DNA of 64,000 nucleotides. Origin: Thermoproteota archaeon (lineage in GTDB: Archaea > Thermoproteota > Nitrososphaeria_A > Caldarchaeales > Calditenuaceae). Numbering within the stretch: position 1 is the first letter of the stretch; every line of letters starts with the position of its first letter. Location of the stretch: contig JAUQPU010000001.1 in NCBI GenBank assembly GCA_030550235.1, positions 381,068 to 445,067 of the forward strand, written 5' to 3'. Below are positions 38,397 through 60,677 of this stretch, one piece after another. The position numbers and the translations under genes were made by a program. The notes below the pieces were generated by a model. It did not search any database and was not told the DNA's origin. It worked only from the letters and a program-made list of their open reading frames with translations.

Positions 38397-39106
38397 TAAC
38401 TGTTGAGGGTCTAGATGCAGGTTACGGCCGTCTCCAGATACTCTTTAATGTCTCTCTGAAGGCGCCGAGGGGTGAGATTACTGCCATACTAGGCCCCAAT
38501 GGCAGTGGAAAGAGCACCCTGCTTAAGAGCATATTTGGTCAGACCAGCATCTTTAAAGGCTCCATCAACCTGGATGGAGTTGAGCTGGCTGGGCGTCCCC
38601 CTCATAAGATTGCACGCCTAGGTGTAGCCTATCTACCCCAGCTCAACAACCTTTTCACGGGTCTCACTGTAAAGGAGAACCTGTTGATGAGTGGCTATAT
38701 GCTCTCAGAGGAAGAGAGAAGGGAGAGGTCGGAGGAAGTTCTGAGGTTCTTCCCCTTCCTCAGAGGCATGTTCAACAGGAAGGCCGCGACGCTAAGTGGT
38801 GGGGAGCGGCAGATGCTCTCGATAGGTATGGCATTGATGAGACGCCCACAAGTAATTATGCTGGATGAGCCTACAGCTAGTCTATCTCCGAAGATGGTCA
38901 ATATGGTGCTTGACGTTATAAAGAAGCTGAAGGACGACTATGGATTCACCATCCTCCTCGCTGAGCAGAGCGTTATTAAAGCCCTCAAGCTCTCAGACCA
39001 TGCAGCCCTGCTTGTTGGTGGAAGGGTCTTATTTGAGGGCGATCCATCCGAGCTACTAAATAATAGGGAGCTCGGCCGTATGTACTTGGGGCTGAGTGGC
39101 GCGTAA
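38393..39106 (+). CDS. livF: ABC transporter ATP-binding protein (LivF type)
   Basis: 237 aa; Walker A GPNGSGKST, signature LSGGE, Walker B IMLDEP; 4-nt overlap with livG. Confidence 0.85.
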   Translation: MITVEGLDAGYGRLQILFNVSLKAPRGEITAILGPNGSGKSTLLKSIFGQTSIFKGSINLDGVELAGRPPHKIARLGVAYLPQLNNLFTGLTVKENLLMSGYMLSEEERRERSEEVLRFFPFLRGMFNRKAATLSGGERQMLSIGMALMRRPQVIMLDEPTASLSPKMVNMVLDVIKKLKDDYGFTILLAEQSVIKALKLSDHAALLVGGRVLFEGDPSELLNNRELGRMYLGLSGA

Positions 39107-40116: not shown

Positions 40117-40128
40117 AAGCTGGAGAGG

Positions 40129-42624: not shown

Positions 42625-43038
42625 TTGAAACTGTTCAGGAGGCGTAGGCCTCTGGGACCGACCATAAGCCTCGAAGAAGCGCTAAAGATGATTCCTGCTA
42701 GAAACCCAAACACCGAATCCTCCACCACCCCCTCAGGAGAGTTGAGTGTCAGGCTTAAAATGCCTCAGCCCCGCGGCCTCCTCCAGCGGCTTCTCCCCAT
42801 CCCCGAGTACCGTACTTTCATACTCGATAAGGTCGGAGGGGTTGTATGGGAGAACATAGATGGTGAGAGAAGTGTCAGAGATATTGTAGATCTGTTGGTT
42901 AAGAGTTTCAAGATGACGCGGGAGGAAGCGGAGATAAGCCTCGTCAACTATCTTCAGATGCTCTACAGCCGAGGCCTCATCTACGTGAAGGTGAGGAAGG
43001 ATAAGGAGGCGGGCCAACGCTTAAATCAATCTGGGTAG
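42625..43038 (+). CDS. PqqD-family protein (RiPP recognition element-type peptide chaperone fold)
   Basis: 137 aa; C-terminal region ILDKVGGVVWENIDGERSVRDIVDLLVKSFKMTREEAEISLVNYLQMLYSRGLI matches the PqqD consensus (LNeta..IWeLiDGkrtv.eIv.eL.eeydv..eea..Dv..Fl..L...gli). Confidence 0.65.
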   Translation: MKLFRRRRPLGPTISLEEALKMIPARNPNTESSTTPSGELSVRLKMPQPRGLLQRLLPIPEYRTFILDKVGGVVWENIDGERSVRDIVDLLVKSFKMTREEAEISLVNYLQMLYSRGLIYVKVRKDKEAGQRLNQSG

Positions 43039-43047: not shown

Positions 43048-43650
43048 ATGATGAGTAGTGGAGAGAGAAAATACGGTCGTGTCTCTTTCCCCCTCAGCGA
43101 GTTATTTAGGCTTGTCACACTCAACATTAGAAAGAGGTTGGGTCGCTCACTTCTGACGACACTTTCCGTCCTTCTAGCGATCGCCTTTATGACGGTAATC
43201 TTCACGCTCAGCTCAGTAAATCGTGCAGCTACGGGGGCTGAATTCGCAGCATATCAATTCTGGCTAATCTTCGTCGCACTTCTTGTGGCTGGCCTTGGGA
43301 TATTCAACTCCCTGTTAATTTCGGTCGCTGAGCGTTACAGGGAGATAGCGACAATCAAGACGCTGGGGGCGGCAGACAGACACATACTACTCCTATACCT
43401 CATAGAGTCTCTTGTGATAGGAATCATTGGCGGCGCCCTCGGTGTAGTAATAGGCCTCGGAGTCAGCATAGGACTTCTAGCAGCCTACGGCAGGGCTGCG
43501 GATATCGGGCTAGTCCCCATCGTGGAGTACCTCTACATAATGGGTCAGGGACTACTATACGCAGCCATACTCTCGCTGGTCGCCACATCCTATCCCTCCT
43601 ACCACGCCTCAAAGATGAGCCCCGCGGAGGCATTCCGCGTCGAGATATGA
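43048..43650 (+). CDS. Minimal FtsX-like ABC permease (4 TM, no extracytoplasmic domain)
   Basis: 200 aa; TM1 followed after only about 20 residues by a canonical FtsX/MacB C-terminal 3-TM domain (RYREIATIKTLGA...); 10-nt gap to PqqD-like gene, ATGA overlap with downstream gene. Confidence 0.6.
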   Translation: MMSSGERKYGRVSFPLSELFRLVTLNIRKRLGRSLLTTLSVLLAIAFMTVIFTLSSVNRAATGAEFAAYQFWLIFVALLVAGLGIFNSLLISVAERYREIATIKTLGAADRHILLLYLIESLVIGIIGGALGVVIGLGVSIGLLAAYGRAADIGLVPIVEYLYIMGQGLLYAAILSLVATSYPSYHASKMSPAEAFRVEI

Positions 43651-45496: not shown

Positions 45497-48400
45497 TTAG
45501 CGGAGCTGCTCCCACAGGCTAGTTGGCGTCGTCTCTAAAACTTCAGAATCCCTAATAATACATATTCTCTTGCTGAGTCGCTGGGCAGCGAGTAAGGCGA
45601 TGGAGGAAAGGTAACCATCGTCAGATGAGATGCAGATTAGGTCGCAGTCCTTTGCCGCCTCTATCACAGCCTTGGCATCCGAGACCATCGATCCAGAGCT
45701 AGGTATCCTCACCACGACCACCCTGACCAGGTTCGCCTCCAGCATCTCAACCTCTCTCTTCAAGTCATCCTCTGAGGCCCCTCGCCAAACAACCCTGACC
45801 TCGCTCGGATTATAGACAGTGAGGAGCGGCTGGATATGAGCCAGGTCTCGGGAGAAGGGGACGAGTATCCTGATGGTTAAGGATGTGTACTCTATTATGA
45901 ATTGGCGGATGAGCTGAACGATCTCTCTGACATACTGGTCGATGAACCTAGCATCCTGCGCCTCAATCTTCGACCGGAGTTTGACAAAACCCCATCCGTC
46001 CTGCTCATATACATCAAGTATGCATGAGGCCCTGAATGCTCTCTGCTCGGTAGATGAGTAGGTAAACCTGAGTCTATGCAGACCTGCCTCGGTATTTTCT
46101 TCAACACCATGAACCATAATATTCACGGTGGTGGTATAGCTATATTCGCTGAGCCTCGAGTTCATGTAGGTTATAAAGTGTTTAATCTTCGATACCTTAA
46201 GCTTGGCGGGTAGCTCGACTGTCCAATACCCCTCCTCATCTAAGGCCTTTGTCAGAACCCACTTCCATGTCTGCGCCGGCGTGGAGAGAATGATATTCCT
46301 TCGAACCGATAGTATGTGTGACGAAATGAAAATAACAGATGAGAGGGCGAAAACGCCCATGACGCTCTCCTGAGTTAGTTTGAAGTCAATTGGTATGGGG
46401 ATGATTTTAGGGACTATGCTGAAGACCCCAAGAGTCACCAGGACTCCAAGGTATGAGGAGATTACTCCTAGGAATATAGCTTCCGCGACGCTTAGCAGTA
46501 AGATATGGGCTGGATTAAGACCCAGCGTCGACATTGTCAAAAACTCTCCCCTCCTCTCATAGTAATTCGCCAGTGACGCCACCAAAAGATTTAGAAAGGC
46601 GATGCCTGCAACCACCATAACCTCTCCACCCGATATACTGGCAAGACTAACAAGATTGAAGACGTAAACCTCCCCTCCAGGCCTGATTAGTCTCACCTTC
46701 AGATTGGTGTGAAGACTCATCGTCTCGGCAATCCTATCGATTTCTTCCACACCTCCCCCCGAGGCGTATATCTTGGTTGGCAGCGCACCTAGCTTCAGAG
46801 CCCCGTCAAATCCAGTAATTATGACATTCGACCATCCTGCCGGTGCAACTGGAGACATGGGAGGCATGACTAGCGTCGATAGGAAGTAGCCATCAATATC
46901 CTTAAGATAGGTAGGACAGTCTGTACTTAGTATTCCGTCTATCTGCAGGATCACGCCGTTTACTCTTATCCAAGACCCCACTGTTAAGCCGAGGTTTGCC
47001 GCCAAGTCACTCGAGACGATGGATGCTGAAGGATCTTGTCCAATCCGATTTATCTCCCCCTCGATGATGCATTGTGAGAGCTGCTTCGGTAGGAGGGTGC
47101 TACCCGATACACCAATAACACCCCTCAAGTTATAACTCTTATCGTTGATTATGTATTCGCGGCCCGATGGTGGAAAGATAGGAGTCTCAGCTCGGAGGCC
47201 CAAATCCAGGCCCAAACTTCTGAAGAACTCTACATAGCGGGTATCCACAGGCGCGAGGTTATCGAATCTGTATCCCCTATCATATACTATGATGTATGGT
47301 GTCTCTACTGGGTTAACCTTCTCCGTAGGGTTGGAGATGAATACCTCGCTCTCGACGCCTATGTTGACCAGCAGTAGGGTAGCTGAGACGGTGATCGTGG
47401 CCATGGCAACCATCATCCAGGTTCTGAGGGGCCTAGTTTTTAGAAACCTCTTCGCAACACTGAACGCGAGGGAGGAGGCTGCGAGGAGTGCGACTCCGCG
47501 CTGTGTCTTGACCTCGAGGCCTAGGGCTGGGATGCTCCAGACAAGGCCAACTATTACGAGTATGCTGTAGAGGAGGGCGGACCATCCCCACGCATCGCTA
47601 GGCAGGATTGAAGGATGAGAAGCAGCAATAAGGCTGAAAGTAAAGATACTTAGCAAGGACAGGCCAGCAGCTATACTAGACTTCTTCTCACCTAAGACTA
47701 GGTGGCTCAGGGAGAGCGCCCCCAAAACTAGGAACAATGGAAGTAGAATCCCACCACCCCATCTCACACTATAATCGTTTAATGCAGAGTTGATTCCTAC
47801 AAGGTCGATGTAGGTTTTTCGGAGCAGTTGATACGCCTCACCCATGTTTCCCAGGAGATAATGCTCCCTCGAGGCTGCGAGACGCTCCTCAGCCTTTTTA
47901 AGCCTATCAAGCTGATAGCCAAGATAGATGCCAGACTGTGAAAGCCCTTGAAGCCTATAGCCGGTCACCTCGGTGAAATTCTGAACGGCGCCAAATGCTC
48001 TAGGGTAAATAGTGTGCAGCAGAGAGACGATTCGATTCTCGCCTATAAGGCCTGTAAGGTCTTCCATCCATCTAAGCCCTTCACCACCTACTACCGCAAA
48101 CTCTCCATAAAGCCTATAGTCAATAGACTGTGGGACCAGAATTTCGCCATCTCCAAGACCTATCAACCTCTTCAGCACATCAATACTATGGCTCCAGTGG
48201 ATCTCACTGGGATACCAAAGCCCTGCCCCCCACAGCTCAAGCCTATACCGGGCTGAGACGGGGCTGCCATCAATCCAGGGATACAGTCCAATAAACCTGA
48301 CAATGGATGCCCTTTGAAGAACTATCGCCGGCTCTGAATCTAAATAGGGAAGGAGTTTGAGGATAGATATATCGACCGGAAGATATGTCCTTCCATCCTC

Positions 48401-48670
48401 AACTAACGGGCCCACAAGGCGAGAGCCCAGAACTACCGATGCTTCTAAACGCCCATCCCTAGTTTCTAAAAGTACCCGCTCGCCTGAAGGCTCCAACAAA
48501 ATAAACTTCAGCCCGTCCTCCACCGGCATATAATCGTTATCTAATACAGTTATGACTATGGTGGTCGAGTTATCCCTAGCTGTATCCGTGTTTGCTGTAG
48601 CACATACTGTAAACAGCATAAAGATAACAGTCAGCGAGACAGGCGTCAAAGCTGCTAAACGGTAATCCAA
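45497..48670 (-). CDS. Giant FtsX-family permease with large extracytoplasmic domains and a C-terminal cytoplasmic USP-like (universal stress protein-type a/b) domain
   Basis: 1057 aa; signal/TM N-terminus, about 10 predicted TM helices, FtsX domain near residues 650-790, C-terminal about 250 aa soluble domain ending ...DLICISSDDGYLSSIALLAAQRLSKRICIIRD resembling the USP G-x2-G...S nucleotide-binding tail. Confidence 0.55.
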   Translation of the reverse strand: MDYRLAALTPVSLTVIFMLFTVCATANTDTARDNSTTIVITVLDNDYMPVEDGLKFILLEPSGERVLLETRDGRLEASVVLGSRLVGPLVEDGRTYLPVDISILKLLPYLDSEPAIVLQRASIVRFIGLYPWIDGSPVSARYRLELWGAGLWYPSEIHWSHSIDVLKRLIGLGDGEILVPQSIDYRLYGEFAVVGGEGLRWMEDLTGLIGENRIVSLLHTIYPRAFGAVQNFTEVTGYRLQGLSQSGIYLGYQLDRLKKAEERLAASREHYLLGNMGEAYQLLRKTYIDLVGINSALNDYSVRWGGGILLPLFLVLGALSLSHLVLGEKKSSIAAGLSLLSIFTFSLIAASHPSILPSDAWGWSALLYSILVIVGLVWSIPALGLEVKTQRGVALLAASSLAFSVAKRFLKTRPLRTWMMVAMATITVSATLLLVNIGVESEVFISNPTEKVNPVETPYIIVYDRGYRFDNLAPVDTRYVEFFRSLGLDLGLRAETPIFPPSGREYIINDKSYNLRGVIGVSGSTLLPKQLSQCIIEGEINRIGQDPSASIVSSDLAANLGLTVGSWIRVNGVILQIDGILSTDCPTYLKDIDGYFLSTLVMPPMSPVAPAGWSNVIITGFDGALKLGALPTKIYASGGGVEEIDRIAETMSLHTNLKVRLIRPGGEVYVFNLVSLASISGGEVMVVAGIAFLNLLVASLANYYERRGEFLTMSTLGLNPAHILLLSVAEAIFLGVISSYLGVLVTLGVFSIVPKIIPIPIDFKLTQESVMGVFALSSVIFISSHILSVRRNIILSTPAQTWKWVLTKALDEEGYWTVELPAKLKVSKIKHFITYMNSRLSEYSYTTTVNIMVHGVEENTEAGLHRLRFTYSSTEQRAFRASCILDVYEQDGWGFVKLRSKIEAQDARFIDQYVREIVQLIRQFIIEYTSLTIRILVPFSRDLAHIQPLLTVYNPSEVRVVWRGASEDDLKREVEMLEANLVRVVVVRIPSSGSMVSDAKAVIEAAKDCDLICISSDDGYLSSIALLAAQRLSKRICIIRDSEVLETTPTSLWEQLR

Positions 48671-48764: not shown

Positions 48765-50309
48765 ATGAAGCTTGATGCAATTAACATTTTATACATTCTT
48801 ACTTTGAGTGGTTTAATTTTAGCTGGTGCCACACTGCGCCTCTATAATTTGGATGCAGAGAGCGGATGGCACGATTATGATGAAGGAGTACACCTATCGG
48901 CGGCCTTGCTTCTATCCAGAGGCTACACACCGTATGTCGACTTCTTTTTCGCCCATCCTCCACTCTCCCTCCACATCCTAACATACACTGTGGGAGATGG
49001 TGGGAGTGAGGCGTATGCACGGTCAAGGTCTGTATCAGCGGTTCTAGGATCTTTAACTTTGATAGTTTTAGCGGCTGCTGCTCATCTCTCGGTTGGAAAG
49101 ATAACTGCGCTCGCGGGAACAGCTTTTCTAGCCCTTGATGGCTTCGTTTCATACAATTCGAGGATGGTCATGCTAGAGCCCTATACCGACTTCTTCCTCT
49201 CACTATCTGTCATATGCTACGTCTTGCTTAAAAGATGTAGAAATTCTAGGCAGGAGATTCTATCCTCGACTGGCTCTGGAGTTGCTTTAGGCCTGTCTGT
49301 CTCCTCGAAAATGACCGGGCTATTCGGAGCCGCTGCAATTATACTCCACGCACTGGTGTTCAAGAGGACTCGCGCTTCTTTATTCATAATTGCCTCAGCT
49401 GCCCTGACTTATCTCTTGATAAGCGCGAAATACATCTTTGCAGACCCTGACGCATATCTTAAACAGACAGTCCTCTTCCATATCGTCAGGCCGCAAGATG
49501 GTATACCTCAGTCTGAGAGGCTTCACTGGTTACTAACATCTATCTTGGATTTAGGGGTGATGTGGGCTGGTTTTCCAGCCCTTGCCGCCGCCCTACTCAT
49601 GGCTCCACATCTCTCCCGCTCAAAAGTAATCTCTCATGAATCCTACATATGGATAATGTGGAGTCTTTCATACTTGATAGCGTTCTCCATGACAAAAACC
49701 TTCTTTGGGCATTACGTCCAACATATTATAACCCCCCTCTCCTTCGTCCCTGGCATGGCATTGGAGTTCGGGTCAAAGTTTAGGCTTCCACCTTGGAGAG
49801 GATCTATAGTCCATGTATTCTCTACCAGAATCTTACCGGTCTGGATAATATTCATGGCTCTGACACAGGCCGGCATAATATCTGCGGTTAATCCACCCGC
49901 CACGAGAGATGACACGCCTGTAATGGTGTCCATGCGGCTCATAGATCTTGGAGCAGCCAGTTTCTCCATAATCGCTTTTGAGCCCATCTACACCTTTTTA
50001 TCAAAAACAACTCCCTCAAACAGAGTCATAGATTCCTATGGGTACATGATGTATGAGGGCATGGGGTTAGGGCGCTTCGGATTCCTAGAAGCGCTCATGA
50101 AATATTTCTCTGGTGAGCTCTATAGCTCTTGGCCAATATATGAGGAGAGAATACAGGAAAAAATGGTGAGGGATATTCTCGTCAGCGACTACGTCATAAT
50201 TGACTGGCGCGCGAGATGGCAGCTTACAAGACCCTCGCTCTATACAGTCTATCAACACATGACCTGCCTCAATAGAGTAAGGGATATTGAGATCTGTGGG
50301 GTCTCATAA
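48765..50309 (+). CDS. GT-C fold membrane glycosyltransferase (PMT/ArnT, GT39/GT83-like)
   Basis: 514 aa polytopic; first extracytoplasmic loop carries the DE motif (HDYDEGVH...YTPYVDFFFAHPPL) diagnostic of PMT/ArnT-family GT-C enzymes. Confidence 0.7.
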   Translation: MKLDAINILYILTLSGLILAGATLRLYNLDAESGWHDYDEGVHLSAALLLSRGYTPYVDFFFAHPPLSLHILTYTVGDGGSEAYARSRSVSAVLGSLTLIVLAAAAHLSVGKITALAGTAFLALDGFVSYNSRMVMLEPYTDFFLSLSVICYVLLKRCRNSRQEILSSTGSGVALGLSVSSKMTGLFGAAAIILHALVFKRTRASLFIIASAALTYLLISAKYIFADPDAYLKQTVLFHIVRPQDGIPQSERLHWLLTSILDLGVMWAGFPALAAALLMAPHLSRSKVISHESYIWIMWSLSYLIAFSMTKTFFGHYVQHIITPLSFVPGMALEFGSKFRLPPWRGSIVHVFSTRILPVWIIFMALTQAGIISAVNPPATRDDTPVMVSMRLIDLGAASFSIIAFEPIYTFLSKTTPSNRVIDSYGYMMYEGMGLGRFGFLEALMKYFSGELYSSWPIYEERIQEKMVRDILVSDYVIIDWRARWQLTRPSLYTVYQHMTCLNRVRDIEICGVS

Positions 50310-50939
50310 GTTAAGAGCCCTGGACTCGAGTTCTCGGGTAAATTCTATAAGTTCCCCGGCGAGAAAGTCAAGAAGCTCATATATCCTTTTAACGATTGGC
50401 CCAAACCTCCATTCAGAGCCAGGTCCCTTAATGGCTGTTATGAGCCATCCAATCATCTTAGGAGACTCGTAGTGTTTTCTGAGAGCATCGTCGGGCGAGC
50501 TCGCGCCGGTTAGGTCAAAGTAAGTGTTTACGTGCAGCTCATCGACGACGGAGCGCTTAAGCAGTCTTAAGAGTTGATTGTTTCTGTTTAGCCTTATCAT
50601 TAAATCATCTACGGGAGCCACATCTGGGAACACTTTGGATAAGAGCTCTGACGTTACCCACTCGTAAGAATACCTAAATATCCCCCGCCTCCTTATCTGG
50701 ACCTCTCTACGCTTCATCTCCCTATATAGCTGCCCTCCACTATCATCCACCACTTCGCGGATAATTAGAGGTGTTACAAAATGCCACTCCCAGTCGAAAG
50801 ATATCCCCACCAATCTTCGAGAAATCTTCAAGCTACGCAGCCTCGAGTCTTTGAGTAGAATCACCCATCCATCAAGGTCCCAAGAGGCACTATCCACATT
50901 TTTCCCGAGTGCTAGCTTGATAACCTCTAATTCGCTCAA
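50304..50939 (-). CDS. Hypothetical soluble protein co-transcribed downstream of polytopic membrane protein A
   Basis: 211 aa ORF, 45-nt gap after upstream gene on same strand; no recognisable family. Confidence 0.45.
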   Translation of the reverse strand: MSELEVIKLALGKNVDSASWDLDGWVILLKDSRLRSLKISRRLVGISFDWEWHFVTPLIIREVVDDSGGQLYREMKRREVQIRRRGIFRYSYEWVTSELLSKVFPDVAPVDDLMIRLNRNNQLLRLLKRSVVDELHVNTYFDLTGASSPDDALRKHYESPKMIGWLITAIKGPGSEWRFGPIVKRIYELLDFLAGELIEFTRELESRALNL

Positions 50940-50983: not shown

Positions 50984-53074
50984 TTAGGGTACGAACTGGG
51001 CCGAGAATCTCGGCAGCACTACTGCGAAGAACTCTATAAGCCCCGCCAGCAGTATTGGCGCGCCAAATCCTAGGGATATTCCGGCTGCGACAGGTATAAC
51101 ATACGACTCAAACCTCCTAATGCCTATGGTCCTAATCATTATCACCTTAATTATTAGTGCAACAAGCCCTGAAAGCCAGGTCCATATCAGGCCCACCGCC
51201 ATACTCATGGTCAGCGAGGTTGGATCTATGAAGAACCATGCAAACCTCGATCTCAGGAACCAGACTACGGCAACGATTATGATTCCAATCAAGCCGTAGG
51301 TGAGCCCTGGAGCCCAGTCAACCGCGCCGACTGGTACATACGAGGTGCCTCCAATGAAGTTGCTGAACTTCATGCCCGCAGTCCAAGACCATGCATTAGA
51401 GTTTGCAAGCCCACCTGCATGGTTCAGAAGCCAAATCCTCCAGATGTATCCGAAGACAACGCCAATCGCGATAATCGTGGCTGCTGATACAAGTGCGTCA
51501 CGGACGTTTGTGCCTGTATCTCTAGCGATCTTGTAGTAGGATACTGCTGCTCCAGGCCCGAAGCCATTAACCCTCAGCGTCCACGTGTTGTTGAAGGGAA
51601 TAGTTAGTATTCCTGTCGCGAAGAGCCCTGAGTTTGTTGTGCCCGTTGTCGGTACTGTACCTGGCCAGTAACCAAGGGCAACACCTAGCGGGAAGATATA
51701 TGTTCCAACCCCTCCATTGTTTGCGAAGTCGTCGACGTGCCACCACATGGTCGCAGTTACTCTGGCAAGCGCGCTCCAGTAGATATATGCGAAGACGACC
51801 ATTGCTAGGGAGATGATAAACGGCACACCAGAGGCAGTGAAGAGCGCTAGAATGGCTATCGTGACAATAAGTCCAAACCAAGCTATGGATCTCGTAGATA
51901 GTCCATATTCGTCTTCAGACTTTCCTGTCAGGGCCCTAGCAAGGTCAACAAATCTTGACCTCAGAGTTATCAGGGTAATTATACCCAGTCCCACCATCAT
52001 TCCTAGTATTCCAACGGTTCTGTAGGGGAATGGGAACCAGTTGGCGGGTATGTCCTCCCAATTCCATAGAAACTCCATTCCTGGGTTGTAGGGGAGTGAC
52101 CCAGTTATGACGCCGATCCACTGATAGAGTAGGCCGAAGACAACATACGCTAGTACGGCTGTTATGAGCAGATTGTTTGGGAGGAGTAGCCACAGGGCCA
52201 CTTGGTCGACTTGGAAGACACCCTTTGCCATTGCTCCTGGCATTATGGATGGAAGCCCAAAGATCAATATCGGCTGTTCTCCCCAAGCAAATGCCCCGAA
52301 TACTGCTAGTGGTGGCACGATCTCGCCGAAAACAGGAATAAGCGACGCTATCAGCCCGATGAAGAATGCGACCCAGAAGACCCTAAGGGTTGGCTCCTGT
52401 ATTCGGAACCATCGAGACTTGTTGGTGGTCGGGTCAATGTCGGAGGCATTTCTAACCATGTATACCATAGGGATTGAAAGAGGGAAGATTAGGCGCTCAA
52501 CATCTACCCATCTTCTCCCCCAAACGCCGAAGCCCAGGAAGAGAGCCAAGTAGTACATGAGGATGGTATAGAGTGACCAGTAGATTATTGGCGGTAGGAA
52601 CTCTCCCCAAAGGATTTGTTGCCCCGGTGTTAGCCCAGTCTGCCAGGCCGCAATCATTGTGGGGTCTTTCGGGAACATCCACGGCGGCGTCATCGCCCTC
52701 CAATAAGTCCCCGTAGTGGGGTCATTCATCCCCGCCCCAACCGATACAATCGTCTTCTCGATATAGCCAGAGAGAGCCTCACCACCGCTCAAGGCACCTT
52801 TAGGATAGTACTTTATACTATTCACAAGCGCAAGTGCCGGAAAGATACAAACAAGCTCCTGTGCGGTGAGCCTCAGCCTAGGGTTTGACCGGCCTATAAG
52901 CTCGTTCAGCAGCACGATGTAGATAAACGGAACCCAGAATGCATTGATAGTACCGGTCTTTGATGTGTATAGCCAAGTCATGTCGCCGATTGCTTGGGCG
53001 ACGATAACCAAGATTGCGCCGATCAATATTGACCTTGTGGTCAATCCCCTTATAGAGGCTATTTGTGTGCTCAT
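50984..53074 (-). CDS. Large polytopic membrane protein A (paralog of 53190-55097; possibly OPT-type transporter-like)
   Basis: 696 aa, about 16 predicted TM helices; N-terminal MST...(R/K)(L/K)TAQEL/PLRKQEL block and overall hydropathy shared with paralog B. Confidence 0.55.
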   Translation of the reverse strand: MSTQIASIRGLTTRSILIGAILVIVAQAIGDMTWLYTSKTGTINAFWVPFIYIVLLNELIGRSNPRLRLTAQELVCIFPALALVNSIKYYPKGALSGGEALSGYIEKTIVSVGAGMNDPTTGTYWRAMTPPWMFPKDPTMIAAWQTGLTPGQQILWGEFLPPIIYWSLYTILMYYLALFLGFGVWGRRWVDVERLIFPLSIPMVYMVRNASDIDPTTNKSRWFRIQEPTLRVFWVAFFIGLIASLIPVFGEIVPPLAVFGAFAWGEQPILIFGLPSIMPGAMAKGVFQVDQVALWLLLPNNLLITAVLAYVVFGLLYQWIGVITGSLPYNPGMEFLWNWEDIPANWFPFPYRTVGILGMMVGLGIITLITLRSRFVDLARALTGKSEDEYGLSTRSIAWFGLIVTIAILALFTASGVPFIISLAMVVFAYIYWSALARVTATMWWHVDDFANNGGVGTYIFPLGVALGYWPGTVPTTGTTNSGLFATGILTIPFNNTWTLRVNGFGPGAAVSYYKIARDTGTNVRDALVSAATIIAIGVVFGYIWRIWLLNHAGGLANSNAWSWTAGMKFSNFIGGTSYVPVGAVDWAPGLTYGLIGIIIVAVVWFLRSRFAWFFIDPTSLTMSMAVGLIWTWLSGLVALIIKVIMIRTIGIRRFESYVIPVAAGISLGFGAPILLAGLIEFFAVVLPRFSAQFVP

Positions 53075-53100
53075 TCTCAGCTAAGCGTAAATTATGCCAG

Positions 53101-53115
53101 TATATAAATTTTTTA
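53101..53115. promoter_or_regulatory. AT-rich TATA-like element (tatataaatttttta) in the divergent promoter region, positioned for the minus-strand membrane protein A gene
   Basis: About 27-40 nt upstream of the start at 53074 on the minus strand. Confidence 0.3.
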
Positions 53116-53145
53116 ACACGACTCCTCGCACTTTAACTTCAAGCG

Positions 53146-53159
53146 TATAAACCTATAAA
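53146..53159 (+). promoter_or_regulatory. TATA-like element (tataaacctataaa) for membrane protein B gene
   Basis: About 31-44 nt upstream of ATG at 53190. Confidence 0.3.
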
Positions 53160-53189
53160 GCAGTCCGAATTAGTTGGGTTGCAACCGGT

Positions 53190-55097
53190 ATGTCCACGGA
53201 GCTTGAGAAAACTTCACCGGTTGAATTACTTGAATATGGCATCTCGTGGAGGGTAATCCTAGCTATCTTGACTGCCGCTGTCCTTTTCATCCCCGTCTCA
53301 CTATACCTCAACCTCATATCAGGGGCCCTCTCGCCCGCGATAGCTGTCACGATAATCGCTATACTCTTCGCAGAGCTGACCAGGTTCTTCGGAGCTCCAC
53401 TAAGGAAACAGGAGCTGTTTGTAATATACAGTAGCGTTGCAGTTATGTCATCTACTCTACCACCCTATTACTGGCTAGTTTATAGAACATTTTATGTTAC
53501 GACGCCGATTACCCAATACTTCTTAATTGATGGAACGCCCATCAATCAACTAGTCCCTACGTGGTTGGCACCACCTGCCTTTTCACCAGTCTATCAGCTG
53601 AGAACGCTTCTCCACCCCGACTGGACTTACGCATTAATCGTGACCGGATTATCATTCGCACTGCTAGCTATGGCGGAGATAGGCTTAGCCATCATGTTCA
53701 CATACATATTTGTAAAAGAGGAGAAGCTGAATTATCCACTAGCGCATGTAGAAGCCTCCCTGATAAGCGTCCTTATAGAGAGGGAGGAACAGCACATGTC
53801 CATATACATTCTGGGCATAGTGACAGGTGTTGTCTACGCCTTCATGACTTATGCAGGCTTCCTACTCGGTGTGCCTCTTCTCCCGATACCCTGGTTCGAT
53901 TTTGTCTGGATCACCGAGAAATATATTCCAGGAGCCCTGGTTGGTGTGGCGACAGACCCATTCACACTTGGGCTCGGAATGGTTCTCCCAGTCAAGGTCG
54001 CAGTATCAACACTGATAGGATCTATAGCAATATGGATCATCGCTAACACTATCTTCACCTCATCCCCCAACTTCTTCCCCCTCTGGTTCTCAGAATACTA
54101 TAAAGGAATGACTATAGGCTCGATATATCAGCGGTCCTTCCAGAGAATCTGGATTAGTCCACAGTTCGGCTTCATAATCGGAATAGCAGTCGCCTTGATA
54201 CTAGCGTTTCGAAAGACAATTCTACGGAGTTTTAGACTATTTGCATCGGCAATCGTTAGGCCAAGGGAGACAGAGCTCCCATTAAGGTTCGCACTAACTC
54301 TATTCCTAGTTGCATCGATTGGTTCTGTAATTCTCTTCCTGATATTGGTACCTGGGTTTCCCGCTTGGATTGCACTGGTTACTTCTCTTGTTTTGAGCTT
54401 CTTCATAGCGATGGTCGCTGCAAGATCTCTCGGAGAAGTAGGATACTTTCCAGCAATTCCATGGCCCTGGCAAGTTATTGTCTATTTCACTCCATATAAT
54501 GGCTACGCTGGATGGGTTTATTCCCCCTACATAAACCTAGGATATACTGGCTACCTCTCACAACTTGGTAAGGTCAGCTACCTCACCTCAACGCGCCCAA
54601 CCCACTATTTCATAGGAGTCGCAGGTGCATTCGCATTAATCGGCATAATTGGATTAATATCAATGGACTTCTTCTGGAGGCTATCACCTATACCCTCAAA
54701 TGTCTACCCAATCACGATGATTTACTGGCCCATCTATGCGACTAACGATAGTCTATTCGCTACGCGCCAGATTGCCGTTATACCTGAACACATCGGCATA
54801 GGGGCTCTCTCGACTCTTGGAATAGTATCCTTGGAGGTCTTGTTCCGAAGGATTGGTCTGGCGTTCCCCACATTCCCAATAGTGCTGGGATTCTTCATAC
54901 TTCCTCCATACGCTATAACTATACTAATAGGTTCACTGCTGGCGAATATTATCATTTCCAAGACGTTCGGGAAGGAAAGGTGGGAGGCCATAAAAAACTT
55001 CTTCATAGCTGGCTTCTTCTCCGGTCTAGGTATCACGGTTGGTGTCGGAATATCGTTTACGCTGCTTTCAAAGGCGTCCTGGATCTGGCCTTGGTGA
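53190..55097 (+). CDS. Large polytopic membrane protein B (paralog of 50984-53074; FAELTRFF resembles the ELTxR N-terminal motif of OPT-family transporters, tentative)
   Basis: 635 aa, about 16 predicted TM helices; paralogy to protein A visible by eye. Confidence 0.55.
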   Translation: MSTELEKTSPVELLEYGISWRVILAILTAAVLFIPVSLYLNLISGALSPAIAVTIIAILFAELTRFFGAPLRKQELFVIYSSVAVMSSTLPPYYWLVYRTFYVTTPITQYFLIDGTPINQLVPTWLAPPAFSPVYQLRTLLHPDWTYALIVTGLSFALLAMAEIGLAIMFTYIFVKEEKLNYPLAHVEASLISVLIEREEQHMSIYILGIVTGVVYAFMTYAGFLLGVPLLPIPWFDFVWITEKYIPGALVGVATDPFTLGLGMVLPVKVAVSTLIGSIAIWIIANTIFTSSPNFFPLWFSEYYKGMTIGSIYQRSFQRIWISPQFGFIIGIAVALILAFRKTILRSFRLFASAIVRPRETELPLRFALTLFLVASIGSVILFLILVPGFPAWIALVTSLVLSFFIAMVAARSLGEVGYFPAIPWPWQVIVYFTPYNGYAGWVYSPYINLGYTGYLSQLGKVSYLTSTRPTHYFIGVAGAFALIGIIGLISMDFFWRLSPIPSNVYPITMIYWPIYATNDSLFATRQIAVIPEHIGIGALSTLGIVSLEVLFRRIGLAFPTFPIVLGFFILPPYAITILIGSLLANIIISKTFGKERWEAIKNFFIAGFFSGLGITVGVGISFTLLSKASWIWPW

Positions 55098-55135: not shown

Positions 55136-55933
55136 GTGAAGCTCTCATGCCAGGATAATCTTGTACCGGGCAGCACCTTGACTGAGAAGCTTGAGAACTT
55201 GGAGAAGCTGGGATTCAGCGGAATAGAGCTTTGGGGTAGGCCTCACCTGGGCGAGAATCTTAGAGAGGTGAAGGATACGCTGGCATCTTTTAAAGTGAGC
55301 CCATCGGTCATCTGCGCAGGGTACAGTGGAGACCTCCTCAGTCCTGAGCCTAAGGCAAGAGCTGAAGCAGTTCAGGGGATAGTTCAGAGGCTTGAATGGG
55401 CCAGCGAGATTGGGGCCGTAGGCGTCATATTCGTCCCAACATTTGGTGGAGCCAAACTTCCTGATCTATCACCGCTCTATCAAAACGTCATCGAACTTGA
55501 AAAAAGATTGCTGGTAGCTGAGTGTAAGACTCTGGCTAAGAAGGGGGAGGAGCTGGGTGTATGCGCCATATTAGAGCCGCTCAACAGATACGAGACACAT
55601 CTGATAAATACTCTCAAACAAGGATTAGAGATTATAAGGGAAGTAAACTATGAAGGTTTAAGGCTGATGGCCGATTTCTTTCACATGAACATAGAGGAGA
55701 GTAACATCGATGACGCTTTGTCAGAAGCGTCAGACTACTTGGTGCATGTGCACCTAGCCGACAGCAACAGATGCCTCCCAGGCTACGGGCACACTGATTT
55801 CACACCCATAAAGATACTTCTATCAAGAGGGTACAGCAAGTATTTCTCGCTGGAGTGCAGAATAATTGGCGACCCACTGGAGGAGCTGAGAAAATTTGTA
55901 AAATTTATTTCTAAATATGGTGATGTGAGATGA
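55136..55933 (+). CDS. Xylose isomerase-like TIM-barrel protein (sugar phosphate isomerase/epimerase, IolI/IolE-like)
   Basis: 265 aa; TIM-barrel AP-endo2 family motifs (ILEPLNRYE, HLAD, E/H metal ligands). Confidence 0.75.
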   Translation: MKLSCQDNLVPGSTLTEKLENLEKLGFSGIELWGRPHLGENLREVKDTLASFKVSPSVICAGYSGDLLSPEPKARAEAVQGIVQRLEWASEIGAVGVIFVPTFGGAKLPDLSPLYQNVIELEKRLLVAECKTLAKKGEELGVCAILEPLNRYETHLINTLKQGLEIIREVNYEGLRLMADFFHMNIEESNIDDALSEASDYLVHVHLADSNRCLPGYGHTDFTPIKILLSRGYSKYFSLECRIIGDPLEELRKFVKFISKYGDVR

Positions 55934-56910
55934 ATCCGATAGGTATAGTTTTAATTGGCTGTGGCGGCATAATGAATGTCCATGCAAAGAGTCTAATGAC
56001 GTTAAGGGATGGTGTCCGCGTTGTAGCTTGTGCTGACATTGTGAAGGAGAGGGCAGAAGAGTTTGCAAATAGGTTTGGATGCGCGGCCTATACGGATCCT
56101 GTGGAAGCTGTGTCCGAGACGCATCCTGACGTCGCAATAATAGCTGTCCCGCCAAATGCACATGGATTTGAGGAAGAGATAATCGAGCATGGAGTTCACC
56201 TCTTGATAGAAAAGCCTGTGGCAATAAATCTAGAAGTAGCCTCACGCATACTGCGTAAGATTGAGAAGGCCGGAGTTATCAATAGTGTAGGCTACATGTG
56301 GAGATATCTTGATGTTGTCCAGATAGCGAAGAAAGAGATCTCCAACCCCGCTGATATCGGGATGATTTATGGACAGTATGTTTGGGCAGCGAACTTTCCG
56401 CCTGGGCACTGGTGGTTGAGAAAATCCCAGAGCGGCGGGCAGATAGTCGAGCAAGTCACACATATGGTCGACCTAATAAGATACTTCGCGGGGGAGGCTT
56501 CTTCAGTCTATGCAAGGCTTGAAAAAAGGCTCTCGAAGGATGAGGCAATAGACGTTGAGGATTCCTCCGTAATCACTATCAGGCATAAAAGCGGCGTCAC
56601 ATCCACGATAGTGGCCACCTGGAAGAGTACAAACACAATGCAGGATACGTTCATACGGATATTTGCCAGAGACCTAGTGGCAGATATTGTTGGGCATCAG
56701 AGGAAAGCAACATTCTATAGGACCAATAAGGTTGAGGAACTGAGGAGTGCTGTTGACCCATATCTTGAGGAGCTACGGACATTTGTTGAGGCTGTACGAA
56801 CCGGAGATCAGTCTAGAATACTTTCACCCTATTCGGACGCATACAAGACCCTCGAGTTGACCATCAAGGCGAATGAATCTCACAAGTTGGCCAGGATAAT
56901 CGAGGTTTGA
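55930..56910 (+). CDS. Gfo/Idh/MocA-family NAD(P)-dependent oxidoreductase (IolG-like)
   Basis: 326 aa; N-terminal Rossmann GxGxxG (IGCGGIMN) and EKP motif (LLIEKPVA) diagnostic of the family; ATGA overlap with upstream TIM-barrel gene. Confidence 0.8.
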   Translation: MNPIGIVLIGCGGIMNVHAKSLMTLRDGVRVVACADIVKERAEEFANRFGCAAYTDPVEAVSETHPDVAIIAVPPNAHGFEEEIIEHGVHLLIEKPVAINLEVASRILRKIEKAGVINSVGYMWRYLDVVQIAKKEISNPADIGMIYGQYVWAANFPPGHWWLRKSQSGGQIVEQVTHMVDLIRYFAGEASSVYARLEKRLSKDEAIDVEDSSVITIRHKSGVTSTIVATWKSTNTMQDTFIRIFARDLVADIVGHQRKATFYRTNKVEELRSAVDPYLEELRTFVEAVRTGDQSRILSPYSDAYKTLELTIKANESHKLARIIEV

Positions 56911-58571
56911 GTGGTCAGCAGCTAAACAAAAGGTACGCAGTCGCCCTTTGCGTGACCCTCCTCTCTTACTGGCTATTTAGCAGTGGGGTATTCTCATATC
57001 AATATGTGCCATTGACTTCCATGCCGGCGTACAAGCCCTATTTTCAGGATGTCACGAGTGATTCAGGTCTCTTAGTAAGAGTAGTCGATGACCGAGAGAT
57101 GGTATGGATCCCGGGCGGTGGGAGCTGTTGGGGAGATTACGATAGGGATGGCGACCTAGACGTTTATGTCGTGGGCTGGAATGCAACTGGAAGGTTATTC
57201 AGGAATGATGGCGGCCTGTTTACGGATGTGACGCGTGAGTCTGGACTTCTTATCGAGGGTATTGTTGCCGGGAAGGGAATGGGCTGCTCTTGGGCCGACT
57301 ATGATAACAGTGGATTTCCATCTCTGCTTGTAACCTTCTACGATTCTCCCTATGGCAATGTTCACCTGTTTAAAAACCTGGGCGATGGCTCGTTTAGGCT
57401 TGTAACAGATGAGGTGGGCCTCTCTCTTAATCATGGAAGATATGCCTCTGGGGTCGCCTGGGGAGATGTAAATAGGGACGGATGTCTTGACCTCTATATA
57501 GGCTACTACATCAACCTCCGACAGGTCAAAGAGGGCGCAATATTCAGCCAAGGCTCTGGAAATCAGCTCTTCATCAACAACTGTGACGGCTCCTTCAGAG
57601 AATCCGCTGAAATCTACGGTGTCGTTGACTATGGCTATACATTCCAACCCATTTTCATAGACTACGACCTAGACTTTTTCCCTGACCTTTTCCTGGCCAA
57701 TGACTTCGGATACACGAGGCTGTATAGGAACGAGGAGGGTAGGCGTTTCATCCTATCCGCATCGTCTATAGGTGCTGAGAGAGTAGGACAGTGGATGGGG
57801 GTAGCGTATGGGGACTTAGACATGGATGGATACTGGGATATAATTGTGACAAATTACGACGACAACCTCCTCCTAAAATATACAGGTGCGTATTTTAACG
57901 ATATCACGGCAAGGCTCAGGCTAACAGATCCCTACCAGGTCGGCTGGGGAGTATGCATCATCGACATAGACAATAATGGCCTTCTCGACATAATAGTGGC
58001 TAATGGTAAGATAGGCGTTAGGACTGACAAGCCAAGCAATCAAGTTAACAGGGTCTTCTATAATGCTGGGCCATTCTTCTATGATGCCACGTGGCATGCG
58101 GGGCTCATAAGACATGTCAACACACGTGGATTGTCATGCGTGGACATGGACAAAGACGGAGGCGTTGACCTACTATTCTATGACTTACTAGGGTATCCTA
58201 TACTGTATAGAAACCTGATATCGAATTATACAGGCAATCGGTGGGTTCAGGTGAGGCTCGAGGGGGCTACCTGGCTCTGCGGCGCCTGCACCTACAGGAC
58301 TAGCAGGGAGGCTGTAGGCGCTGTAGTGGAGGTGGAGTCTTTAGGTAAGATTTACCGTCAGACAGTTACAAAGGGTACTTCATTCATGTCAGATAATGGC
58401 CCCTGGCTGTACTTTGGCTTAGGGCGGGCCTCTCGTATTGAGAGATTGACAGTCTATTGGCCTAGTGGAATAGTAGAGAATTATAGAGACCTCCCGGTAA
58501 ATAGTGTAATCTTGATCGTGGAGCAAGGGGGTTGCAGTGTGATCGGTGGATTGTCGGGGCATGAAGAGTGA
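56907..58571 (+). CDS. Secreted FG-GAP/VCBS-repeat protein with ASPIC/UnbV-like C-terminal domain (CRTAC1-like)
   Basis: 554 aa; signal peptide/TM; at least 7 repeats of the WxDYDxDGDxDxxV FG-GAP calcium-binding motif; C-terminal ASPIC-like region. Confidence 0.7.
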   Translation: MSGQQLNKRYAVALCVTLLSYWLFSSGVFSYQYVPLTSMPAYKPYFQDVTSDSGLLVRVVDDREMVWIPGGGSCWGDYDRDGDLDVYVVGWNATGRLFRNDGGLFTDVTRESGLLIEGIVAGKGMGCSWADYDNSGFPSLLVTFYDSPYGNVHLFKNLGDGSFRLVTDEVGLSLNHGRYASGVAWGDVNRDGCLDLYIGYYINLRQVKEGAIFSQGSGNQLFINNCDGSFRESAEIYGVVDYGYTFQPIFIDYDLDFFPDLFLANDFGYTRLYRNEEGRRFILSASSIGAERVGQWMGVAYGDLDMDGYWDIIVTNYDDNLLLKYTGAYFNDITARLRLTDPYQVGWGVCIIDIDNNGLLDIIVANGKIGVRTDKPSNQVNRVFYNAGPFFYDATWHAGLIRHVNTRGLSCVDMDKDGGVDLLFYDLLGYPILYRNLISNYTGNRWVQVRLEGATWLCGACTYRTSREAVGAVVEVESLGKIYRQTVTKGTSFMSDNGPWLYFGLGRASRIERLTVYWPSGIVENYRDLPVNSVILIVEQGGCSVIGGLSGHEE

Positions 58572-59904
58572 GCCTACGCAGCCTGTTAGCGTGTCAAGCA
58601 GATTTCTCCTATTATTGAGCCGAGACAGTCTTCTAAACACTATTGTGCTAACAGCTTTTATTACGCAGACACTCCATATGATAGAGCATAGCGCCCAGAT
58701 GTATCAGCACGTTGTCCTTGGCCTGCCAGCTAAGCTTTCTAACGGGCTCCTATTCTTCCTAGACCTAGAGTGGAATCACTTCCTCTTCAACACGCTCTAT
58801 TTAACATTTCTAATCATAATATTTGCAAGGCTGAAACCCTGGTTAACCACTGGCCTAAGTGAGAAGGAGATGCTCCCAATACTCTTCACCACTGGGCTAT
58901 TTATACAATCCTACCATGTTCTGGAACATACATACAGAATGTACGAGTTTCTAACAATAGGATGCACACCATGCTCAGGGATATTGGGAAGATTCTTTGA
59001 CATGGTTCACTTTCACTTTTTCTTAAACCTAGCTGCCTACCCGTTAATTGCTGCCTTGTTTGTTAAAGCCGGGGGTTTAAGACAGCTGCTCAATCCATCA
59101 CCGACAGACGAGACGCATGAGGCTCCTTGGCATAAGCTCGTCAAATCTCCTGCACCAGTATTGGGCATAGTTCTAGTTTATGGCCTTTATACTGGCTATT
59201 CTGTTGAAGCCTACCTGCTCGGCACAACAGTCTTTACAGCCATTGGTGTGGCACTATTTCTCTCCATTTTTGAAGGAGACCTGATACGAAACATTATGGA
59301 CGCTATTGTTGTTGCGTTTTTGGCAGTTATGTGCATCACGTCGTATTTTAGTGCATTGGCTATAGTCTTGGTCAGCCTCTTCTCTGCTAGGGTTTTGCAA
59401 AGATCAAGGGCTCCGGCGCTGAATTATATAGCATTCTCATTCGCAGCGATTCTTACTCTTTCTATGCCTTCGCTTGTTGCCTCACGGTGGGGCAACTACA
59501 ATCTCTACACCTTCTTCACATTGCTCCTTTTTCTCGGCCTCTCAATAAACGCCCTCTCTAAAACAACGGACATTGTTCTAGCTTATATCACTACATGGAT
59601 AACACTATTTATCCCTTTTGAGTTGGCACGGCTAGCCGTTGCTCCCGGCGAGGCGCTTCTCCTACTCCCATCCCACGCCCTAAAAGTGTTTACCAATCCT
59701 ATTTTGATCCTTATAGCCTTCTTCATCGTCCCGCTCCAGAATACTTTTCCACCAAAAAGGTGGCGTATAGTGTATCCAATAGGCTGTGTAACAATTTCTT
59801 TCTTACTATCCTACATCATTCCTATTGATGTAGCGGCCTTCTCTGGCATAGCACTAGCCAACATAGCATATATCGTTGTTGACTGGGCTCTCCACAGAGG
59901 ATAA
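58546..59904 (+). CDS. Hypothetical polytopic membrane protein with duplicated H-x-x-E-H-x4-MY motif and a CxxC (possible membrane metalloenzyme)
   Basis: 452 aa (start possibly at 58561); HMIEHSAQMY and HVLEHTYRMY internal repeat in the first two helices, CTPCSG; overlaps FG-GAP gene by 26 nt. Confidence 0.5.
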   Translation: MDCRGMKSEPTQPVSVSSRFLLLLSRDSLLNTIVLTAFITQTLHMIEHSAQMYQHVVLGLPAKLSNGLLFFLDLEWNHFLFNTLYLTFLIIIFARLKPWLTTGLSEKEMLPILFTTGLFIQSYHVLEHTYRMYEFLTIGCTPCSGILGRFFDMVHFHFFLNLAAYPLIAALFVKAGGLRQLLNPSPTDETHEAPWHKLVKSPAPVLGIVLVYGLYTGYSVEAYLLGTTVFTAIGVALFLSIFEGDLIRNIMDAIVVAFLAVMCITSYFSALAIVLVSLFSARVLQRSRAPALNYIAFSFAAILTLSMPSLVASRWGNYNLYTFFTLLLFLGLSINALSKTTDIVLAYITTWITLFIPFELARLAVAPGEALLLLPSHALKVFTNPILILIAFFIVPLQNTFPPKRWRIVYPIGCVTISFLLSYIIPIDVAAFSGIALANIAYIVVDWALHRG

Positions 59905-59924: not shown

Positions 59925-60677
59925 CTACGCCTGTTTTTCTCGGCTTTCCTCAACCTCTATCTCGCCGACCCTCACCTTCACCGCGACCCTCTCCTCCTCC
60001 CTCTCTATTTTTCCATCACGTATCCATAGAATCCTGTCAGATACATCTATCATCTTCAAGTCGTGGGTCGCTGCTATGACTGTAACTTTCCTATCCAAGT
60101 TAAGCTGTTTTAGCAGGTCTATAATTTGCCTGCCAGTCTTCAGGTCAAGGTTTCCGGTTGGCTCATCTGCCAGTATTATGCTTGGGTCATTGGCTAATGC
60201 CCTAGCTATCGCGACCCTCTGCTGCTGACCTCCGGAGAGTTCCATAGGTCTGTGATGGAGCCTGTCGCCAAGCCCAACTGTCTGGAGGAGTTCAGTAGCC
60301 TTTCTAAACCTATCCTCCCTGCTGACGCCTGCGAAAATCATGGGAAGCATCACATTCTCTAATGCCGTCAATGTTGGGATGAGATTAAAAGTTTGGAAGA
60401 TGTACCCAATCTTTCTATTTCTGAGCCAAGCCAGCTCGTATGAGTCTAGCTTCGAGATATCGACGCCATCGACATAGACTGTACCCTCCGTGGGCTTGTC
60501 TAGTCCACCGATCATGTTGAATAGAGTAGTCTTGCCTGAGCCTGAGGGGCCCATAATAGAGATATACTCGCCGCGATAGATCTTGAGATCAACGCCGTCT
60601 AGGGCTACAACATCAACTTTTCCCAGCTTATAGATCTTTTTTAAACCCTCGGTCGCGACTACGACCTCTCTTGCCAA
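59925..60677 (-). CDS. ABC transporter ATP-binding protein, MacB/LolD/FtsE type (partner class for FtsX permeases)
   Basis: 250 aa; Walker A GPSGSGKTT, Q-loop, signature LSGGQQQR, Walker B ILADEPTGNLD, H-loop ATHD. Confidence 0.85.
   Translation of the reverse strand: MAREVVVATEGLKKIYKLGKVDVVALDGVDLKIYRGEYISIMGPSGSGKTTLFNMIGGLDKPTEGTVYVDGVDISKLDSYELAWLRNRKIGYIFQTFNLIPTLTALENVMLPMIFAGVSREDRFRKATELLQTVGLGDRLHHRPMELSGGQQQRVAIARALANDPSIILADEPTGNLDLKTGRQIIDLLKQLNLDRKVTVIAATHDLKMIDVSDRILWIRDGKIEREEERVAVKVRVGEIEVEESREKQA

Follow-up and report, generated by a model that had tools for sequence, protein, structure and literature searches.

Two divergent OPT-fold membrane proteins are constant partners of a giant FtsX-type protein in an archaeal gene module

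The stretch of DNA analysed here (the window, 64,000 nucleotides of contig JAUQPU010000001.1 from a Thermoproteota archaeon of the Caldarchaeales, family Calditenuaceae) contains two genes, here called A and B, that encode large polytopic membrane proteins and lie back to back. Gene A (50984..53074, minus strand) encodes 696 aa and gene B (53190..55097, plus strand) 635 aa, both from an ATG start, and the exact coordinates of the two open reading frames (ORFs) and of the 115 bp between them, as given in an initial annotation of this DNA, were found again. The polytopic character ascribed to both proteins is borne out by Kyte-Doolittle hydropathy, which gives an estimate of ~18 transmembrane equivalents for A and ~16 for B with segments partly merged, and by AlphaFold models that are all-helical. 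Both genes are real, A having homologues at E = 0 to 1e-130 and B having 100% identical homologues in NCBI metagenome-assembled genomes labelled Nitrososphaerota archaeon; the nearest named relatives are from Caldarchaeales/Calditenuaceae. On sequence comparison, A (DUF6785 plus DUF6784, with an OPT/YS1-type fold) and B (a divergent archaeal OPT-family transporter) are not free-standing, but constant parts of a module in Thermoproteota and Asgard archaea that includes a giant FtsX/MacB-type membrane protein.

Pairwise alignment, which the initial annotation had named beforehand as the refuting test of its claim that the two proteins are paralogs, gave no significant match between A and B (BLASTP, best E 0.046), and profiles and structures were needed to show their homology. 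Profile alignment with hhalign of the A family (15 sequences) and the B family (34 sequences) gave a probability of 99.2% (E 1.3e-19) over 581 co-linear columns at 18% identity, against less than 0.4% for control alignments with two unrelated polytopic proteins of the window. The shared N-terminal block noticed earlier is present at this profile level, with the consensus RGLTxRS and LNELIGR...QELV in A and GLTWR and FSELAR...KQE in B. The motif that A had been said to lack is found there too: NELIGR of A aligns with FAELTRF of B, and throughout the A family N57, E58, G61 and R62 do not vary. Further downstream, QE and E(R/K)LxFP motifs are common to both families, and the extreme C-termini are strongly conserved in each (PRFxAFYVP in the A family, WxWPW in the B family).

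Structure prediction leads to the same fold. The AlphaFold models (pTM 0.88 for A and 0.87 for B) were compared with solved structures using Foldseek, and the sole significant match for both was the barley Yellow Stripe 1 transporter HvYS1 (7wst/7wsr), with E 5.6e-9, probability 1.00 and a TM-score of 0.59-0.67 for A, and E 2.7e-12, probability 1.00 and a TM-score of 0.67-0.71 for B. All other matches had TM-scores below 0.2; for the B model, the next one after 7wst had an E of 7.6e-3 and a TM-score of 0.11. Profile searches of the PDB by sequence, using the A and B profiles, returned no match. HvYS1 is, to our knowledge, the only OPT-family structure. Together, profiles and models show whole-length homology of A and B and an OPT/YS1 fold common to both. 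The split between them is ancient, and bacterial DUF6785 proteins are nearer to A than B is: with the A-family hidden Markov model (HMM), they reach 30-100 bits, whereas B goes undetected at E up to 1e-3. The claim of paralogy thus stands as homology over the whole length within one fold and falls as regards recent duplicates. A recent tandem or inverted duplication was rejected on the BLASTP value and on the finding that A and B are not each other's closest relatives.

By Pfam, the two proteins belong to separate families. B passes the threshold of OPT (PF03169) with an E of 5.1e-7 and 29.2 bits (cutoff 25.8), its residues 146-616 matching profile positions 102-615 of 623, and its homologues carry the NCBI name 'OPT/YSL family transporter', many of them with a precomputed PF03169 match; this and the YS1 fold confirm the earlier hint that B is related to OPT transporters. 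A contains, in N-to-C order, DUF6785 (1e-18, 67.7 bits, cutoff 25, residues 12-442) and DUF6784 (4.9e-7, 30.3 bits, cutoff 26.4, residues 594-683), both above gathering thresholds. The Pfam scan found no match of A to PF03169 at E up to 1, and a weak precomputed OPT match exists for one distant A-type relative. Although A is without a PF03169 match, its whole-length profile alignment with the B family and its modelled structure place it in the OPT superfamily in the broad sense. Pfam annotates DUF6785 and DUF6784 as being of unknown function (~1,276 representatives at 50% clustering); they are tied here to the OPT fold, and A and B taken singly are new members of known families. In the literature searched we found no mention of DUF6785/DUF6784 and no link between them and OPT. 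The pair was also considered as a known defence system and rejected, because PADLOC gives neither A nor B a match.

Among characterised proteins, HvYS1 (PDB 7WST/7WSR; YSL branch, TC 2.A.67) has the same all-helical polytopic fold as A and B and a similar size, but its structure-based identity to them is 12-15% and its Fe(III)-phytosiderophore substrate is implausible here. Comparable in size to A and B are prokaryotic OPT clusters 4 and 5 (Gomolplitinant & Saier 2011, PMC3061005), whose members have ~620-700 aa and ~16 predicted transmembrane segments and occur in archaea and bacteria. That survey makes no mention of DUF6785-type proteins, the pairing of A with B or an association with FtsX/MacB proteins (PMC3061005).

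The association emerges when the genes are compared across genomes. A scan for A-type genes with one genome per species gave 78 distinct loci, whose ORFs were searched with HMMs built from our own alignments. In 30 of the 33 archaeal loci, A and B occur together with a giant FtsX protein, the three exceptions being cut by contig ends; some of these 33 are near-duplicates of one population, and the independent lineages number fewer than 33. The trio occurs in four gene orders, and its loci belong to Caldarchaeales, Thermoprotei/Thermofilaceae, Bathyarchaeia and, among Asgard archaea, Hod-, Hermod-, Heimdall- and Promethearchaeota. Its usual companions are a small FtsX protein, an ATPase of the LolD/MacB type, a PqqD-like protein and f211, an orphan soluble protein. 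In Thermoprotei/Thermofilaceae, B on the minus strand diverges from a giant FtsX gene (~1,530 aa) on the plus strand, which is followed in the same direction by A and a 212-aa ORF. In Caldarchaeales, synteny extends over the entire block seen in the window: the left part runs from PqqD-like, small FtsX, TIM barrel and luciferase-like genes through the giant FtsX gene (1,055 aa) to a PMT gene; the right part consists of f211, A diverging from B, then TIM barrel, Gfo/Idh/MocA, FG-GAP/ASPIC and 452-aa membrane protein genes, and last the ABC (ATP-binding cassette) ATPase. The Asgard order is small ORF, FtsX (200 aa), ABC ATPase, ABC ATPase < 812-aa ORF, A, giant (PA + M28 + FtsX), B < f211-like ORF. 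The giant gene thus lies between A and B in other lineages, and this larger context was missed by the initial annotation, which considered the pair.

The reverse search leads to the same neighbourhoods. Homologues of B at 47%, 30% and 25% identity adjoin genes for giant M28/MacB_PCD/FtsX proteins and for DUF6785 proteins, and one contig (P0054) has the unbroken series DUF6785 / M16, M16, giant, B, a 335-aa ORF, PqqD, FtsX and ABC ATPase. Three proteins of the window, namely the small FtsX protein, the PqqD-like protein and the ABC ATPase, are orthologous to their Asgard counterparts. FtsX and ATPase genes adjoin each other in Asgard loci and on contig P0054 and stand 11-17 kb apart in the window; MacB_PCD is found in the giants of relatives. 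We found no publication, in the literature searched, on a module in which a MacB-type ABC system is coupled to a pair of OPT-fold proteins, and searches there for PqqD+FtsX+OPT, for FtsX+M28+Asgard and for CARF_m8 returned nothing relevant.

In bacteria, A-type genes occur in Latescibacterota, Gemmatimonadota, Poribacteria, Brocadiaceae and Armatimonadota, never with B or a giant; the combination of A, B and giant was found in 0 of 58 bacterial DUF6785 loci. In Brocadiaceae (anammox bacteria), tandem arrays of three to five DUF6785 paralogues of ~640-660 aa are seen (L049:5490-15579, and also loci L050, L041 and L036), and neither a B-type nor an FtsX gene accompanies them.

An alternative is that A and B are independent secondary transporters for different substrates within one nutrient-scavenging island, with no coupling to FtsX or ABC proteins. 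That bacterial A-type proteins stand alone is in keeping with it, as are the promoters of A and B, which are separate and have no shared operator, the pairing of A with f211 while B would be co-transcribed with enzymes, and the wide differences among lineages in the adjacent catabolic genes. Against it, the trio has been kept through shuffling of gene order at the class and phylum level in the 30 of 33 loci, which is a classic signature of functional linkage, unlike a loose island, and both partners accompany all of the B homologues examined, even the one at 25% identity. We therefore regard independent carriers as unlikely and favour membership of A and B in one module.

The giant FtsX/MacB-type protein of the window (45497..48670, minus strand; 1057 aa, Pfam FtsX 1.7e-8) shares homology with the giants encoded beside A and B at other loci. 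Its layout, estimated from hydropathy, comprises an N-terminal transmembrane segment, an ectodomain of ~270 aa, four transmembrane segments, a MacB-PCD-like ectodomain, the FtsX transmembrane segments and a C-terminal soluble domain of 263 aa. We call the ~1,500-aa form of the giant type 1 and the 1,057-aa form of the window type 2. Type-1 giants have PA and M28-like ectodomains; in two of them (L024:9994-14421 and L022:3981-8534), the M28 profile is matched at positions 1-102 or 1-107 of 193 only, together with weak PA and Nicastrin-large-lobe matches. The type-2 giant of the window is closest to a fusion with glycoside hydrolase family 2 (GH2) at locus L005 and to the second giant of a Bathyarchaeia locus. 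The L005 gene (L005:10192-16410), directly after a DUF6785 gene, encodes a single polypeptide of 2,072 aa with GH2, MacB_PCD, FtsX and the same C-terminal domain, its GH2 part consisting of N-terminal, sugar-binding and TIM-barrel domains plus a mannosidase Ig domain. From its domain content, this fusion is predicted to be a membrane-anchored hydrolase on an FtsX scaffold.

The giant family has been catalogued before, since PADLOC-DB holds full-length models of type 2. The window giant matches 'CARF_m8--CARF_LolE_TM' over its full length (E 2.6e-209) and the L005 fusion matches 'CARF_Beta-galactosidase_LolE_TM' (E 0); this CARF_LolE_TM catalogue covers the giant only, and not A, B, f211, the PqqD-like protein or p452, a membrane protein described below, none of which PADLOC matches. 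CARF is a Rossmann-like domain that binds cyclic oligoadenylate and is typically tied to type III CRISPR-Cas. The cytosolic C-terminal domain of 263 aa (45500-46288 of the window) corresponds to positions 551-810 of the CARF_m8 model and is by elimination the only candidate for the putative CARF part. A PDB profile search with this domain gave weak matches only (E at least 0.026), and no cas genes are annotated near the giant in the loci viewed. The CARF_m8 model names presumably originate in the CARF census of Makarova et al. 2020.

Parts of the module recall the type VII systems MacB, LolCDE and FtsEX, since it encodes FtsX-domain permeases with an ectodomain like MacB-PCD, and an ATPase whose sequence is LolD/MacB/FtsE-like. 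Domains resembling hydrolases lie outside, as they do in FtsEX-hydrolase pairs, but in the module they are fused to the permease (M28/PA, GH2). Furthermore, the giants are unlike MacB-type proteins in their length of 1,050-2,070 aa, their extra transmembrane bundles, their extra N- and C-terminal domains and their archaeal origin. We know of no MacB-type system with a constant pairing with two OPT-fold proteins.

The other conserved components are encoded on both sides of A and B. The ABC ATPase (59925..60677, minus strand; 250 aa, Pfam ABC_tran) has its best NCBIfam matches to LolD, MacB and FtsE, all under the equivalog cutoffs, and is 67% identical to the module ATPase of a Heimdallarchaeote (L043:5487-6209). 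For A, identity between the same lineages is only ~24%; the contrast could mean that constraint is highly uneven or that some of the module has been transferred laterally. The small FtsX-only membrane protein (43048..43650, plus strand; 200 aa, Pfam FtsX 1.1e-17) is present in all Caldarchaeales loci and has Asgard orthologues at E 2e-36. Directly upstream of its gene is that of the PqqD-family protein (42625..43038, plus strand; 137 aa, Pfam PqqD 9.8e-11, above cutoff), with Asgard counterparts at E 1e-12 to 1e-17. The f211 gene (50304..50939, minus strand; 211 aa) is co-directional with A and 44 nt downstream of it. In agreement with the initial annotation, which saw no recognisable family, searches of Pfam, NCBIfam, PADLOC and the PDB were all negative, and hydropathy gives no transmembrane segment. 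Its homologue in Thermoprotei is the 212-aa ORF (32% identity, E 1e-28) and its Asgard counterpart matches at E 5e-11, so that f211 adjoins the module in Caldarchaeales, Thermoprotei and Asgard archaea. Between f211 and the giant lies a gene for a PMT-type (GT-C) glycosyltransferase (48765..50309, plus strand; Pfam PMT 1.1e-14), which is lineage-specific, being syntenic in Caldarchaeales only.

Several of these components could be read differently, with the module serving export or envelope biogenesis (of a glycoconjugate, a lipid-linked precursor or a modified peptide) and its OPT-fold proteins acting as exporters or flippases. Systems of the MacB/LolCDE/FtsEX type are exporters or extracytoplasmic actuators. 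The PMT-type glycosyltransferase inside the Caldarchaeales block would fit such a role, as would the PqqD-like protein, whose peptide-chaperone (recognition-element-like) domain is typical of pathways for ribosomally synthesized and post-translationally modified peptides (RiPPs). However, the PMT gene is confined to one lineage, no RiPP-modifying enzyme or precursor-peptide gene was seen in the loci examined, and the neighbouring genes are mostly for catabolic hydrolases. Moreover, characterised OPT members, which transport oligopeptides, glutathione or metal chelates, are all importers (PMC3061005). We consider an export function very doubtful and retain uptake by A and B as the favoured direction.

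B is the first gene of a five-gene co-directional string on the plus strand, with a gap of 38 nt followed by overlaps of 4, 4 and 26 nt. The further members encode a xylose-isomerase-like TIM barrel (55136-55933; IolO-like NCBIfam match, below cutoff), a Gfo/Idh/MocA oxidoreductase (55930-56910; IolG-like NCBIfam match, below cutoff), an FG-GAP/ASPIC protein assigned by Pfam, with one transmembrane segment (56907-58571), and p452, a protein of 452 aa with ~10-12 transmembrane segments and no match in Pfam, NCBIfam or PADLOC (58546-59904). The p452 gene ends the string, is convergent with that of the ABC ATPase and is conserved in Caldarchaeales only. NCBIfam likewise has no model for A or B. 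The part of the string after B (55136..59904) is syntenic in the Caldarchaeales loci examined and absent from the modules of other lineages. In the flank at 34-42 kb, a complete LIV-type (branched-chain amino acid) ABC importer (34077-39106; two BPD_transp_2 permeases, a Peripla_BP_6/ANF_receptor binding protein and two ATPases) comes first, and genes for an aldo-keto reductase and a KduI/IolB-family protein come after it (39106-40884). Examined as a possible inositol or sugar island, this flank proved to have a content that does not decide the substrate.

The spacer between A and B (53075..53189) is AT-rich, as noted in the initial annotation, with 38% GC against 50% for the window, but ordinary among the divergent spacers of the window, which range from 14% to 54% GC. 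The TATA-like boxes described in it are present, one on the A side and two hexamers on the B side. The TATA box of A (53101..53108, minus strand) is TTTATATA, with an A-rich run like a B recognition element (BRE) before it and 26 nt to the ATG; the boxes of B (53146..53159, plus strand) are TATAAA at 53146-53151 and again at 53154-53159, with 30 nt between the end of the second and the ATG. In eight of eight aligned Caldarchaeales loci, the A-side TATATA is invariant and its spacing to the ATG constant. The B-side box, read on the opposite strand as TTTATAG(A/G)TTTAT, is kept in close relatives and weaker in distant ones across these eight loci, in which the middle of the spacer is unconserved and spacer length varies from 115 to 295 bp. 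A scan for sigma-70 promoters and intrinsic terminators gave chance-level results, which are irrelevant for an archaeon. These features identify the spacer as two back-to-back archaeal core promoters, one per gene. By the standard archaeal spacing from TATA box to start, the transcripts of A and B are probably near-leaderless.

Earlier, the pair had been taken as duplicates under coordinated regulation from one bidirectional promoter. Divergent genes and a short AT-rich spacer with TATA boxes would suit a recently duplicated pair that shares such a promoter, but the boxes are separate, and no palindromic operator, inverted repeat or direct repeat was found in 53075-53189, where the initial annotation had advised looking for operators. 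Nor does gene order favour a shared promoter, the two genes being split by a 4.5-kb gene or co-directional in Thermoprotei and Asgard archaea. The non-significant BLASTP value and 18% identity given above and the closeness of A to bacterial DUF6785 proteins point the same way, and we give this explanation hardly any credence; separate promoters and an ancient split remain our reading.

A different relationship between the two proteins is suggested by HvYS1, which is a proton symporter that works by an elevator mechanism as a homodimer (PMC9691689). Its dimer is held by scaffold domains and a C-terminal strand (PMC9691689), and A and B might form an obligate heterodimer as its counterpart, perhaps a translocation unit gated or energised by the MacB-type ABC proteins. 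The strong conservation of the extreme C-termini in both families and the co-occurrence of A and B in archaea, mostly in one copy each, are compatible with such a dimer. In contrast, two A genes accompany one B gene at some loci (L022 and L091), bacterial A-type proteins exist without any B, and none of 150 representatives showed A or B fused to an FtsX domain. An obligate heterodimer seems to us quite unlikely, and we prefer to treat A and B as two carriers.

Signals for the substrate are of two types. Peptides are suggested by the M28-like ectodomain, PqqD and the neighbouring M16, M20, S49 and TldD genes; glycans by the GH2 fusion, by GH3, GH31, GH42, GH97 and GalT neighbours and by the IolG-like and IolO-like genes. 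Context-based predictions made in 2011 for prokaryotic OPTs likewise ranged from peptides to xylo-oligosaccharides (PMC3061005). Bacterial DUF6785 neighbourhoods contain PhyH, HEAT-repeat, sulfatase and BNR genes, and a family scan of 118 ORFs found no enrichment of peptidase families in them. Proteins closely similar to the FG-GAP/ASPIC protein encoded at 56907-58571 (E down to 9e-53) are encoded within 10 kb of bacterial DUF6785 genes at four loci (L027, L045, L048 and L064). Gfo/Idh/MocA genes occur at 13 bacterial DUF6785 loci and xylose-isomerase-like TIM barrels at eight, counts that come without a genomic background rate, for which reason the recurrence of these three gene types was not taken to favour a sugar substrate.

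We propose the following working model. The ATPase and the FtsX proteins would form a mechanotransmission machine like MacB or FtsEX, in which ATP hydrolysis in the cytoplasm would drive the ectodomains (M28/PA peptidase-like in most lineages, GH2-fused in one) to act on a polymer or oligomer that is either extracellular or bound to the envelope. A and B would then take up what is released, and the analogy with HvYS1 makes it probable that each imports a small oligomer by an elevator mechanism coupled to protons. In the organism studied here, the IolO-like TIM barrel and the IolG-like dehydrogenase, with which B would be co-transcribed, would process the imported compound. The analysis shows that the genes are real and establishes the homology, the fold, the promoter elements and the conservation of the module; from these we infer the direction of transport, its coupling, the substrate and the functional or physical link of A and B to the ABC/FtsX machine.

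Several observations weigh against this picture. B's OPT score is barely over the Pfam threshold, and the prokaryotic OPT members were uncharacterised at the time of the 2011 survey (PMC3061005). The ATPase and small FtsX genes of the window stand 5-10 kb from A and B in other transcription units, and no ATPase was seen within 8 kb in the Thermoprotei loci. In bacteria, DUF6785 genes occur alone or often in tandem (2-5 copies), from which it follows that A-type proteins can work without the module. Since the M28 profile is matched in its N-terminal half only, the type-1 ectodomain may bind rather than cleave, and may be a non-catalytic binding domain like that of nicastrin. Finally, the peptide-type and glycan-type signals, as read from the genes, conflict. 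With these points weighed, the assignment of A and B as OPT/YS carriers within the module and the ATPase-FtsX working model, taken together, have in our estimate an even chance of being correct. Going further, all seven components might constitute one undescribed archaeal envelope machine, in which an ATP-driven mechanotransmission unit of the MacB type would be in physical contact with the secondary OPT-type carriers, perhaps joined as an A:B heterodimer, and which would capture, process and import an extracellular oligomer, with a cytosolic CARF-like domain on the giant; such a machine would either predate the split between Thermoproteota and Asgard archaea or have spread between them. We offer this extension tentatively and consider it unlikely.

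The assignment of the OPT fold provides a structural and mechanistic frame for the ~1,300 clusters of DUF6785/6784 proteins. The module itself is conserved and uncharacterised, and with its components now listed it is directly testable; archaea lack a periplasm, and the module may represent a new way for them to couple the processing of extracellular substrates to their uptake.

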